DNA of 64,000 nucleotides from Thiotrichaceae bacterium UBA4486 (GCA_002389045.1 DGNS01000015.1:196217-260216), one strand, 5' to 3'; shown: positions 61,128-64,000, counted from the first letter of the stretch. Numbers and translations are program-made. The notes: generated by a model not told the origin, from the sequence alone.

Positions 61128-61192
61128 GGAATGCGTGGTATTGTTCCGGAAAAGAAGCGCAACTTTACCTGATCAGGTGGCGGGGCGCCAGA

Positions 61193-61258
61193 TTGCAGAC
61201 TTCAGATTTCAGACATCAGACATCAGACTACAGACTACAGACGACAGATTACAGATGG
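61193..61258. repeat. Heptameric simple-sequence repeat array, about 9 x CAGAC(T/A)(T/A)-like units (cagacttcagatttcagacatcagacatcagactacagactacagacgacagattacag)
   Basis: Direct inspection shows degenerate 7-mers with a CAGA core. Confidence 0.7.
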
Positions 61259-61318
61259 CAGGGAACAGGTAACTGGGAACAGGGATTTGTGAATCGTGAC
61301 TGGATCGAGAATACTATT

Positions 61319-61398
61319 TACCAATCACCAATCACCAATCACCAATCACCAATCACCAATCACCAATCACCAATCACCAATCACCAATCACCAATCAC
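61319..61398. repeat. Perfect octameric SSR: about 9.5 x ACCAATCA (ccaatcaccaatcacc...)
   Basis: Direct inspection of lines 61321-61400. Confidence 0.85.
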
Positions 61399-61402
61399 TG
61401 TC

Positions 61403-62230
61403 GTGAAAAAATACTGCATATTCTCAATCTATCTGTTCGCCTTTCTGGTCTCTATGCCGGCCCCTGCCTATGACAACAGCCGGGAGACGCTCATCGCCGA
61501 GCGTCTCGAGGAACGTATCAAGTTGGGCAAACCCATGTGGCTGGAGTCCGCCAACGGCGATTTTTTTGTCATCCGGACAGAGCAGATGACCCGTGAACCG
61601 CAGGGCGTCGCGGTGTTGCTGCACGGTATCGGCGCGCACCCCGACTGGCCGGTGGTCATTTCCCAGTTGCGCAAGTCACTGCCCCAGCAGGGCTGGTCCA
61701 CGTTGTCGGTACAGTTACCGGTGCTGCCGCCGGAACACGCCATTGCCGACTATGGCAAAACACTGGATGAGGCCCGCCGGCGTATTGGCACAGCCCTCGA
61801 ATATCTGCGAGAACAGCAAATTGAACCGGTCGTCATCATCGGTTACAGCTTTGGCGCGGCAACGGCCTTCAGCTACAGCGCCAACCTGCAGGAAACGCCT
61901 TCGGATCTGCTCGGCGTGGTCGGGATCAGCGCCGTGGCCCAGCCCTTCATGCGACCCCCGGTGGATCTGCTGGCTGAAATCGAGGGGGTTAAAATACCGG
62001 TGCTGGATATTTACGGCAGCCGCGATTTTCCGGAAATCGTTAACGGCGCAGCCGATCGCCGGCTGGCCGCGCGCAAGGGCGAAAATCCCTGGTATCAGCA
62101 GATTGAAATCGAGGGCGCCGATCACAATTATTCCGGCCTCGGCAACGTCCTCAGCAAACGCATCAGCGGCTGGTTGAAAAAGCTGATAGAAGATTACCGG
62201 ATCCGGCAATCACAGGACGCAGTTGACTGA
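61403..62230 (+). CDS. Secreted alpha/beta hydrolase (a GTG start at 61403 is proposed; the listed ATG at 61193 would translate the SSR arrays)
   Basis: The signal peptide VKKYCIFSIYLFAFLVSMPAPA begins right after the SSR array. The nucleophile elbow GYSFGA and the alpha/beta hydrolase fold follow. Translating from 61193 gives QTSDFRHQTSDYRLQTTDYR...QSPITNHQSPITNH repeats, which is implausible. Confidence 0.55.
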   Translation: MKKYCIFSIYLFAFLVSMPAPAYDNSRETLIAERLEERIKLGKPMWLESANGDFFVIRTEQMTREPQGVAVLLHGIGAHPDWPVVISQLRKSLPQQGWSTLSVQLPVLPPEHAIADYGKTLDEARRRIGTALEYLREQQIEPVVIIGYSFGAATAFSYSANLQETPSDLLGVVGISAVAQPFMRPPVDLLAEIEGVKIPVLDIYGSRDFPEIVNGAADRRLAARKGENPWYQQIEIEGADHNYSGLGNVLSKRISGWLKKLIEDYRIRQSQDAVD

Positions 62231-62255
62231 CTTCACATCATAAAGGTGTCTGGCT

Positions 62256-62356
62256 TCAGCCAGACACCGCGAACCACGCCACGTCACACAGGTATCTGCC
62301 TTTAATGCAGGTGTCTGACTTCAGTCAGACATCGTGAACCACACCTCCCAGGTATC
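62256..62356. repeat. Two tandem copies of a ~65-bp unit, each holding a 9-bp-stem hairpin (GGTGTCTGGC-TTCA-GCCAGACAC...GAACCAC), at the core/island junction
   Basis: Copy 1 starts at 62256 (ggtgtctggcttcagccagacaccgcgaaccacgcc) and copy 2 at 62321 (ggtgtctgacttcagtcagacatcgtgaaccacacc). Both are followed by ...caggtatc. Confidence 0.6.
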
Positions 62357-62724
62357 CAGGCCGTGTTTGCCCCGTTCAATAATGCAGAGTTATACTCAGC
62401 TCACTTGCATAACGGCATGAATGCAATGGAAAACACCGGCATATTCCACCTCGCCTATCTGCGCGATATACGGCCTGCCACGCCGGATAAGAATCTTATA
62501 CCGGCCACAATGTCCGTATTTGCTGCTTTCAATAATACCCGAATCCAATAAAGAACGGACACTAACGACATGAAATAAAACGGAACAGGCAGGAGCGGGA
62601 GAACAGAAATCACTGTTCCCCCTGCGTCATATCCGGCGTGTGGTCCATATATTAACTGTTGGGCGGCACAGAAGGACACTTCATGCAGAATTCACGATAG
62701 ATAATACATTTTAGCAAGAAGATC

Positions 62725-63003
62725 ATGGCAAGACATATTGAAGAACAGCTTTATTCATCACTCATCGATGCAAAGTTTCGTTTTATGGCGAGAGGTGAAC
62801 ATCACATCGATGATATTTATGCACGTGTTAAAACAGAGTTTCCCCTCTTATGTGACGACCAGTATTTCTGCTCAGAAAACTGCAATGCCGGCAATAATCA
62901 GTCTGAGTGGAAACACACAGTTCGTAACGCATTGCAGAGACTTAAGAAATTAGACCAAAACATAGCCTTTACAGGCAAACGAGGATACTGGTCTTTTGGC
63001 TAG
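62725..63003 (+). CDS. Small Mrr_N-like winged-helix protein, first gene of the AT-rich cassette
   Basis: 92 aa. The C-terminal SEWKHTVRNALQRLKKLDQNIAFTGKRGYWSFG resembles the N-terminal winged helix of Mrr-type restriction proteins (NRAGWAHDRLKRAGL...RGKWCLT). GC is about 38%. Confidence 0.45.
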   Translation: MARHIEEQLYSSLIDAKFRFMARGEHHIDDIYARVKTEFPLLCDDQYFCSENCNAGNNQSEWKHTVRNALQRLKKLDQNIAFTGKRGYWSFG

Positions 63004-63041
63004 TATGGAACAACAGCTCAACTGATTGATAGAAACCAACA

Positions 63042-63353
63042 ATGATTTCACGACATATAATAATGATAGCTGTAGGAATACTTCTCAAAAATATTTTTAT
63101 ACTTACCTACTTAGGCATTGCTCAGGCGCTATTTTTATCGGCCATTGTAAATGGTATTGATATGAAATTTGTAGTAAAAGATGCCGATATGCGAATGAAA
63201 AATCTAATCGATCAGAATTCAGCTGATGAAGGTGCAAGACAATGGCTAGATCGGTCATCTAGAACAAAATCTACTATATTTAATTTATGGTTATGTAAAT
63301 CTATATGGTATGGGGCAGTTGTTTTGGTTGCAGCCTATATTACAAGATCATGA
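63042..63353 (+). CDS. Small membrane protein (N-terminal and C-terminal TM segments), second gene of the cassette
   Basis: 103 aa with hydrophobic segments IIMIAVGILL...IFILTYLGIAQALFLSAIV and IWYGAVVLVAAYI. It starts 38 nt after the previous gene. Confidence 0.4.
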   Translation: MISRHIIMIAVGILLKNIFILTYLGIAQALFLSAIVNGIDMKFVVKDADMRMKNLIDQNSADEGARQWLDRSSRTKSTIFNLWLCKSIWYGAVVLVAAYITRS

Positions 63354-63423
63354 TGCCGCCTAACCAGCGCATCCAGGTGACGCCAAAAAGCGGCGCACCT
63401 GATACATTACGTTATGTTGCATT

Positions 63424-63936
63424 ATGACTCGTAAACAACGTCTTCGCAGGGTAGGAATACTTTGCTGCCATTGCCTACGGAATCTTGCCTTCTACAAAGC
63501 AGGTTGGCGGAACGGTAAGCTTATATTCCACGATCAATTTTGGGTAAACGCCAATGGTAATTTTTTAGATATTTGTGTAATGGAATGGTGCAAGCTCTTC
63601 GGTGAAGTACGTGGCGCACATTATTGGAAGAAAGTGATATCTACACCAGATGAATTTTTTGGTAGTTTATTGAACGAGGCCAAAGTAACGGAAGCAGAGC
63701 TTGATGATTATATAAAAGAAATGCGCACATATCGAGATAAATTCGTCGCTCACCTAGATTCTGAAGAGACAATGCACATTCCGAAACTTGATGTCGCGCA
63801 TAAGACTGCGTCGTATTTGTACGACTATCTTCTGGCGAATGAAGATGAGGGCGGCTACTTTGCCGACGCGCCAAGAAAGGCTTCAACTTTTTATCAAAAG
63901 TATCTGAAGGAAGCAAAGTCGGTATACGACCAATGA
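63424..63936 (+). CDS. HEPN-like protein (Rx4-6H motif, DUF4145/Abi-like), third gene of the cassette
   Basis: 170 aa. YRDKFVAHLD contains R-x5-H, the HEPN RNase signature. The protein is helical and K/E-rich. Its stop overlaps the next start (ATGA). Confidence 0.4.
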   Translation: MTRKQRLRRVGILCCHCLRNLAFYKAGWRNGKLIFHDQFWVNANGNFLDICVMEWCKLFGEVRGAHYWKKVISTPDEFFGSLLNEAKVTEAELDDYIKEMRTYRDKFVAHLDSEETMHIPKLDVAHKTASYLYDYLLANEDEGGYFADAPRKASTFYQKYLKEAKSVYDQ

Positions 63937-64000
63937 ACATGCAACATAACAAGGCAAATTCACTCGGACGTCAAAAAGCGGCGATCCTCGTTCCTCGTCG
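63933..64000 (+). CDS. Fourth cassette gene, 3'-truncated by the window edge
   Basis: An ATG at 63933 overlaps the upstream TGA (caATGAac) and opens a frame MNMQHNKANSLGRQKAAILVPR that runs to the end of the window. Confidence 0.3.
   Translation, partial: MNMQHNKANSLGRQKAAILVPR

Follow-up and report, generated by a model that had tools for sequence, protein, structure and literature searches.

The AT-rich segment at the 3' end of the window, the 64,000-nucleotide stretch of Thiotrichaceae bacterium UBA4486 DNA (GCA_002389045.1, DGNS01000015.1:196217-260216) analysed here, is very probably an array of independent integron cassettes and not one system; the array would be of the CALIN type, since no integron integrase occurs in the window or in the 10 kb downstream of it. 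The array would be inserted between two core genes, those of a DUF3530 hydrolase and of a GCV_T-family protein, and would comprise four cassettes, each terminated by an attC site: gene 1 with gene 2, gene 3 alone, higB-higA, and the gene of a Gp49/RelE-like toxin with that of an HTH_31 antitoxin. This analysis directly observed the attC sites and the framing of the cassettes, found no IntI, and showed that in other genomes the genes are distributed independently. An initial annotation had taken the segment for a four-gene operon acting as one defence system, a reading broken by the attC that splits gene 2 from gene 3.

Organization of the locus

Three complete ORFs, all on the + strand, were confirmed at 62725-63003, 63042-63353 and 63424-63936. 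They have the sizes (92, 103 and 170 aa) and the common direction initially described, and the spacings of 38 nt and 70 nt and the ATGA overlap, at 63933, are present as well. The sequence beyond the window was obtained by searching for exact copies of the 170-aa protein, which led to the 482-kb metagenomic contig Ga0247263_00011 of JGI 3300035331. A stretch of this contig, L001, reproduces the window's final 10,577 nt with zero mismatches and runs 10 kb further. The downstream sequence that the initial annotation had called for is thereby available through an identical copy, but it does not continue the operon and brings the higBA and Gp49/HTH_31 cassettes instead. The features of the region, in window positions unless L001 is named, are as follows.

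62231-62657, no strand: leader, from the stop of the core DUF3530/hydrolase gene to the first cassette
62658-62664, + strand: GTTGGGC, candidate R'-type core and candidate 5' end of cassette 1 (weak evidence)
62725-63003, + strand: gene 1, 92-aa winged-helix protein, first gene of cassette 1
63042-63353, + strand: gene 2, 103 aa (96 aa from M8, the start chosen by gene callers), near-ORFan, cassette 1
63358-63417, + strand: attC closing cassette 1, with R'' GCCTAAC, L'' ATCCAGG, L' CCTGAT and R' GTTATGT
63424-63936, + strand: gene 3, predicted 170-aa all-helical HEPN-like protein, sole gene of cassette 2
63933-64000 in the window, + strand: the "fourth gene", an ORF of 29 codons (L001 10510-10599)
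63944-64037 in window-equivalent numbering (L001 10521-10614), + strand: attC closing cassette 2, its 5' part lying in the window
L001 11220-11355, + strand: attC after higA, matched by model R2
L001 11908-11968, + strand: attC over the end of the HTH_31 gene, matched by model R2

The upstream side is occupied by core genes (DUF3530 hydrolase, rpe, HAD phosphatase and trpEGDC). Downstream of the window genes follow, in order, a HigB-like toxin with HigA, a Gp49/RelE-like toxin with an HTH_31 protein, and the core GCV_T-family gene. As core genes flank both sides, the accessory segment is just ~3 kb long. The description of this DNA as AT-rich and accessory was borne out by its position between core genes, but the proposed GC content of about 38 % from 62360 onward was too low and its start too early: positions 62360-64000 measure 41.9 %, against 55.9 % for the remainder of the window, and the clear drop begins near 62650 (47.7 % for 62360-62657, 40.6 % for 62658-64000). 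Gene 2 is at 33 % GC. Searches of the region for tRNA or Rfam features marking another kind of island found none.

The leader has a GC content of 47.7-52.7 % and contains a hairpin repeat in two copies, at 62246-62267 and 62311-62332 (2 occurrences per strand versus 0 expected). Neither model R1 nor model R2 (see below) places an attC in it, and tblastn finds no IntI remnant there. At its end, the GTTGGGC at 62658 fits GTTRRRY and pairs at 6/7 positions with the R'' box GCCTAAC of the attC closing cassette 1. It would mark the start of that cassette, or could be a chance match, since no full attC was detected upstream; neither attC nor attI was detected upstream of gene 1.

The attC sites

The attC sites were searched for with covariance models that had been built without the window lineage. 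Model R1 was made from 15 attC-like sites taken only from unrelated genomes, at loci with gene 3 homologues, and its consensus structure pairs R'' with R', leaves the spacers unpaired and has bulges in the L helix. RNAalifold returned no structure on the MAFFT alignment of the attC seeds, and the consensus structure was taken from individual folds, then checked by pair counting: 79.8 % of the cells of the seed structure are paired versus 24-44 % in slid-partner controls, and 14 of its 19 pairs show compensatory changes. Model R2 was rebuilt from the 42 foreign sites of R1, with the window lineage still left out. Both models were run with filters off over the window and L001 together (84.5 kb). 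An ad hoc scan for R''/R' complementarity of at least 6/7 was discarded, having missed real sites and given 9 chance matches in the window. A relaxed scan relying on folding energy gave much noise where the DNA is GC-rich, and it served only for picking seeds by eye.

The top R1 match across the window and L001 is at 63358-63417 on the + strand (30 bits, E 1.3e-4), and the same site is the best R2 match of the window (38.9 bits, E 1.1e-7). It lies in the spacer between gene 2 and gene 3, so that what had been described as a simple intergenic gap of 70 nt is, for 60 of these 70 nt, an attC. The site starts with GCCTAAC (RYYYAAC) and ends with GTTATGT; its L'' box carries one bulged base, the crossover G|TT is at 63411-63413, and the bottom-strand DNA fold has z = -2.4.

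All four inter-cassette positions are matched by R2, all on the + strand and within a span of about 2.1-2.7 kb, and beyond them no further site with E < 1 occurs in the 84.5 kb. The scores at the other three positions are lower: 9.2 bits (E 6.5) after gene 3 at L001 10521-10614, 19.5 bits (E 0.013) after higA at L001 11220-11355, and 15.6 bits (E 0.14) over the end of the HTH_31 gene at L001 11908-11968. The R2 E-values are rough, and most foreign R2 matches are the model's own training set; the independent foreign evidence consists of the 27 additional matches of R1. On its own score, one of the four attC sites only is strong.

The canonical architecture R''(RYYYAAC)-spacer-L''...L'-spacer-R'(GTTRRRY), forming an imperfect hairpin whose recombinogenic strand carries extrahelical bases, is complete at 63358-63417 and at L001 11908-11968, the latter with a bottom-strand fold of z = -3.4. 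The site after higA possesses the attC boxes and folds poorly, no better than shuffles (z = -0.6). On the bottom strand, the site after gene 3 folds into a single bulged hairpin that the R boxes close (-21.8 kcal/mol, z = -4.0). Its R'' box is ACATAAC and its R' box ATTATGT, giving a degenerate crossover triplet (ATT, not GTT), and it aligns over its full length with the attC behind the gene 3 homologue of locus L049, which has GTTGAGT versus ATTATGT here. The hairpins of the array carry no T-tracts.

The 70-nt spacing is therefore read as an attC and the "fourth gene" as an ORF running through the next attC. Indeed, this supposed overlapping gene is complete in L001 as a 29-codon ORF that gene callers leave uncalled and that overlaps the attC.

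The ends of the cassettes agree with this framing. For the gene 3 cassette, the 5' end GTTATGTTGC and the 3' sequence GCAACATAAC, just past the stop codon, are exact reverse complements (10/10), and in cassettes 1 and 4 the 5' end is complementary at 6/7 positions to the cassette's own R'' box.

Genes of the first cassette

The gene 1 protein is a winged helix with a Cys-rich insert in which C43, C49, C53 and H64 are invariant. The winged-helix part of the initial assignment stands, as a generic fold, whereas the likeness to Mrr does not: membership in Mrr_N (PF14338) was rejected, the protein scoring 16.9 bits versus a gathering threshold of 29.5 and only one of five family members giving a match. 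Four relatives of gene 1 were found among 5.8 billion proteins, and the neighbours differ in each. At one of these loci, L087, the gene 1 homologue is a single-gene cassette, with an attC 12 nt past its stop codon (26.4 bits, E 1e-5).

The hydrophobic N- and C-terminal segments reported for the gene 2 protein were recovered as hydropathy windows of at least 1.6 at residues 1-40 and 82-100. A word-indexed search gave no homologue, and an exhaustive search of 1.84e9 representatives gave one distant relative, P0128, with 33 % identity over the full length, a library E of 8.6e-4 and a shared TM-polar-TM layout. Because of this single distant relative, gene 2 is taken to be probably a genuine gene, though a very rare one. 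Genes 1 and 2 are placed in one cassette since the 38-nt spacer between them holds no attC. No function can be assigned to them beyond a probable nucleic-acid binding and a probable membrane insertion. The PADLOC run suggested for genes 1-3 returned no matches, and NCBIfam and PHROGs gave nothing significant for them either.

Gene 3 homologues in other genomes

The gene 3 family counts more than 600 proteins in the protein database, all unnamed, of ~170 aa and with 57-84 % identity. Its range covers Beta-, Gamma-, Delta-, Alpha- and Zetaproteobacteria, Nitrospirae, Acidobacteria and Nitrospinota. A genome scan retrieved 79 foreign loci with a gene 3 homologue, and at none of them (0/79) does a relative of gene 1 or gene 2 lie within 8 kb, so the trio is not conserved as a unit. 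Nor is there any other consistent partner gene at the foreign loci.

What recurs there is the attC. In the 79 foreign loci and three short gene 1 contigs, R1 finds 42 sites, all within the 79, and 40 of the 42 are on the strand of the gene 3 homologue. Overall, the attC matches across the 79 loci number 42 to 49, with 47/49 co-oriented with the gene. An attC abuts the homologue at no fewer than 16 loci, on both sides in five, and at least 11 loci have an attC ending within about 30 nt upstream of it. At 13 foreign loci, the 5' GTT box and the 3' AAC box of the cassette show exact or near-exact complementarity. A true IntI (TIGR02249, 436-496 bits) is encoded divergently upstream of the array at four loci (L013, L014, L027 and L050), and intI fragments occur at two others (L010 and L033).

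These loci bear on the other ways in which the window genes could be understood. It is highly improbable that gene 2 (2-TM) and gene 3 (HEPN-like) constitute a functional pair that works from adjacent cassettes despite the attC between them. Such a pair is suggested by locus L091, where a helical ORF, at least 172 aa long, begins 81 nt downstream of P0128 with no attC in between and gives a faint match to a generic HEPN profile (PF05168, E 0.032), and by distant gene 3 relatives of Burkholderia (L058, L059), each followed by an overlapping gene with an N-terminal hydrophobic segment. However, the adjacency of a 2-TM and a HEPN-like protein is seen in two cases only, the window and L091, the L091 ORF was rejected as a gene 3 homologue (hhalign probability 0.8 %) and its HEPN match is sub-threshold. 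Moreover, gene 2 relatives are missing from all 79 gene 3 loci, and at no fewer than 11 loci an attC ends within about 30 nt upstream of the gene 3 homologue. With two cases and sub-threshold scores, the adjacency is treated as probably due to chance.

Still less credit is given to the original proposal that genes 1-3 and the fourth gene form one operon and together make up a defence or abortive-infection system of a new kind, in which a winged-helix sensor and a HEPN effector would act with a membrane protein. The genes do share one direction and lie near each other in accessory DNA that is AT-rich, their folds would suit sensor and effector roles, and no contig of the lineage differs in the trio. 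These contigs are 100 % identical copies of one lineage and thus give no independent information. Against the operon stand the high-scoring attC between gene 2 and gene 3, the foreign gene 3 loci, none of which has gene 1 or gene 2 relatives, the different neighbours of the gene 1 relatives, the mere 29 codons of the fourth gene and the failure of PADLOC to match any of the proteins. Least probable of all is a generic genomic islet not derived from an integron, with ordinary terminators or REP-like hairpins as spacers: the REP-like repeats just upstream, the weakness of two of the four proposed attC sites and the missing integrase would fit it, but the model trained on foreign attC sites recognises 63358-63417 at E~1e-7, and this site shows a bulged base and the R''/L''/L'/R' order of boxes, the 10/10 complementarity of the gene 3 cassette ends fits cassettes and is unexpected for terminators, the hairpins are without T-tracts, and elsewhere the gene 3 family sits between attC sites adjoining true IntI genes.

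The gene 3 protein

Under the preferred reading, that of an array of independent cassettes, gene 3 has to be considered by itself. Its protein, for which a very confident structure is predicted, is helical and HEPN-like. The R-x5-H HEPN signature pointed out initially, YRDKFVAHLD, holds with R104 and H110: R104-x5-H110, which agrees with the conserved Rx4-6H motif of the HEPN superfamily, is invariant in 73 sequences, within an invariant block Y103-R104...H110-L111-D112, and an N-terminal CCHxLRN is also invariant. The recurrent matches to the AbiU2 profile (PF18734, HEPN_AbiU2) stay sub-threshold. Gene 3 itself scores 17.3 bits (E 0.0035) versus a gathering threshold of 26.8; 32 of the 73 family members match at E <=0.01, the best at 1.1e-5, and none of the scanned members reaches the gathering score. 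A database member of the family, P0067, has a precomputed PF18734 match. PADLOC has no match for gene 3, Foldseek against the PDB returned nothing significant and profile searches against PDB sequences gave no match.

A role as a HEPN-MNT toxin was rejected, as no MNT nucleotidyltransferase gene is adjacent and gene 3 stands alone between two attC sites. By analogy with Abi-type HEPN proteins, which arrest growth on phage infection, gene 3 may tentatively be regarded as a lone HEPN-type RNase, with R104 and H110 as its active site, that would act as an abortive-infection effector. Integron cassettes are rich in compact phage-defence genes, some with a HEPN-like domain as their sole recognisable feature (bioRxiv 10.1101/2024.07.02.601686; 10.1101/2024.07.02.601719). 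The HEPN-type proteins reported from validated integron defence cassettes include Esos and Taranis (bioRxiv 10.1101/2024.07.02.601686) as well as AbiV/brcN (bioRxiv 10.1101/2024.07.02.601719). More doubtful is the proposal that the gene 3 family represents a HEPN-type module for abortive infection or defence that consists of a single gene and has gone unrecognised; it would travel chiefly in integron cassettes and would differ from AbiU2, from AbiV and from the defence cassettes of integrons that have been named. Since the compact phage-defence genes of integron cassettes include HEPN-like ones, the family, with its 513-bp gene and invariant putative catalytic dyad, makes a cheap, testable phage-defence candidate, and it is the only item of the locus worth following up.

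Promoters and toxin-antitoxin cassettes

The -10-like element TAGATAAT proposed ahead of gene 1 does exist, at 62698-62705; as a promoter it does not hold, having no acceptable -35 and going unreported by the promoter scan, the total count of which is no higher than in shuffles. On the + strand, TTGACA-16-TACACT, which lies directly 5' of higB, is the sole sigma-70 promoter close to consensus. The higB product, of 92 aa, matches PF05015, and HigA matches TIGR02607 with 108.9 bits versus a cut-off of 47.7; the two genes constitute a HigBA type II toxin-antitoxin pair, with the HigB-like toxin followed by the HigA antitoxin.

Maintenance and origin of the array

The integrase was looked for in two ways. 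No tyrosine-recombinase motif is present in the 64-kb window or in L001 (10 kb downstream), and tblastn with four bona fide IntI queries gave zero matches in either. The locus is not a complete integron, which would have intI with an adjacent attI and Pc. An IntI could be encoded elsewhere in the genome, outside the 64 kb and 10 kb examined.

An integron cassette is an independent mobile unit that IntI, acting in trans, excises by attC x attC recombination on the folded bottom strand; the excised cassette is then re-inserted by IntI at an attI site. Toxin-antitoxin cassettes have their own promoters and stabilise the arrays. Most other cassettes are promoterless and depend on Pc (bioRxiv 10.1101/2024.07.02.601686). 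As neither IntI nor Pc is found here, the cassettes would represent a stored reservoir that is probably poorly expressed, with genes 1-3 presumably poorly expressed or silent. With its crossover triplet mutated from G to A at the first base, the attC after gene 3 probably no longer permits excision at the gene 3/higBA junction, which would lock gene 3 to the higBA cassette, and higBA in turn probably stabilises the array by addiction, as other toxin-antitoxin cassettes do. Part of the array may be decaying, because one attC has an ATT triplet and another folds poorly. The array would have arisen either through loss of intI or through off-site insertion of cassettes, the latter a process that has been demonstrated experimentally (bioRxiv 10.1101/2022.09.11.507474).

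The locus illustrates that small AT-rich genes can owe their tight spacing to recombination sites and not to operon structure, and what appeared to be a novel four-gene defence system turns into an element of a known kind, a CALIN. A decaying attC, with GTT changed to ATT, would fuse two cassettes, which bears on the fixation of CALINs in chromosomes.

Comparison with known systems

The gene 3 protein differs from AbiU2-type HEPN proteins (PF18734) and from the HEPN-MNT toxins (PDB 7ae2, 5yep) by the lack of an MNT partner gene and by its extra invariant N-terminal CCHxLRN. With Vpc_cass2, an integron cassette protein (PDB 3JRT; PMC3548836), it shares 10 % identity, and a sequence relationship is not detected.

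CALINs have been defined together with their abundance and their ORFan-rich cassettes (PMC4889954). The present array resembles them in having several co-oriented attC sites, here called with custom covariance models and not with those of IntegronFinder, and short promoterless ORFs between them, mostly without database homologues. Similarly, no intI or intI pseudogene lies within 10 kb, and its four cassettes are in keeping with the CALINs reported so far, the majority of which have fewer than six attC sites (PMC4889954). It differs in its undefined first boundary, in its ATT attC and in its poorly folding attC. Compared with sedentary chromosomal integrons, such as the Vibrio superintegron, the array is without IntI, attI and Pc and has four cassettes only, whereas the chromosomal location, the related attC sites within the array, the toxin-antitoxin cassettes with their own promoter and the small single-gene cassettes are common to both.

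Promoter-like site and translation starts of the cassettes

The sole strong promoter-like site on the + strand of the array is placed within the higBA cassette, immediately 5' of higB, on L001, the contig stretch reaching 10 kb further than the window.

L001 10618-10645, + strand: predicted near-consensus sigma-70 promoter TTGACA-16-TACACT, shortly past the window end

In cassettes of the gene 3 family, encoding the 170-aa HEPN-like protein, the ATG stands 6-9 nt past the 7-nt R' box, that is, 10-13 nt past the GTT crossover triplet, as defined at window positions 63411-63426 and the equivalent positions in the loci L008, L010, L011, L013 and L014. No Shine-Dalgarno sequence precedes this ATG in the window or in these loci. 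Translation would have to be leaderless-like, coupled or reliant on the context of the upstream attC.

Repeats in and after the DUF3530 gene

Directly past the DUF3530 stop codon, a hairpin is repeated in direct orientation, its two copies lying some 65 nt from each other.

Window 62246-62267 and 62311-62332: perfect hairpin GTGTCTGRCTTCAGYCAGACA

It gives four matches over both strands, against none expected, and is absent from the remainder of the window; possible readings of the pair are a REP-like element and a tandem terminator. The translated 5' region of the DUF3530 gene (window ~61190-61410) contains four copies of the tandem heptad NHQSPIT as well as QTSDYR-like repeats. Over this stretch, GC locally drops to 44% and GC skew is strongly negative.

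Relatives of the three genes in other contexts

Distant relatives of gene 3 (about 40% identity) are found outside integrons in Burkholderia.

L058 7971-8974: distant gene 3 relative with the gene after it
L059 141-1207: distant gene 3 relative with the gene after it

Both relatives are followed, with an ATGA overlap, by a 145-aa gene whose product carries a hydrophobic segment at its N-terminus, and in L059 a 508-aa AAA-ATPase-like gene lies immediately downstream. The further distant relatives in L062, L066 and L069 have neighbours differing from these.

For gene 1, encoding the 92-aa winged-helix protein, the homologue in L088 and its 197-aa upstream neighbour are bracketed by the inverted repeats CTCGGCGGCGCACAGGGG / CCCCTGTGCGCCGCCGAG (1-25 and ~1190-1210), which suggests a mobile context other than an integron cassette. 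Another homologue, in L087, is preceded by a short attC-like site, scored with R2, the covariance model built from 42 foreign attC sites.

L087 826-857: 32-nt "mini-attC" CTCTAAC...GTTAGCC, upstream of the gene 1 homologue (12.8 bits, E 0.05)

It resembles an attC that has lost its central part by deletion.

The only distant relative of gene 2, itself encoding a 103-aa 2-TM protein, is P0128.

L091 79-417: P0128, 2-TM protein
L091 499-1014: helical ORF, at least 172 aa

The two are separated by 81 nt with no attC between them. The helical ORF, unrelated to gene 3, has a faint Pfam HEPN match (E 0.03), and L091 shows, at the level of prediction, a second, non-homologous adjacency of a 2-TM gene followed by a HEPN-like one.
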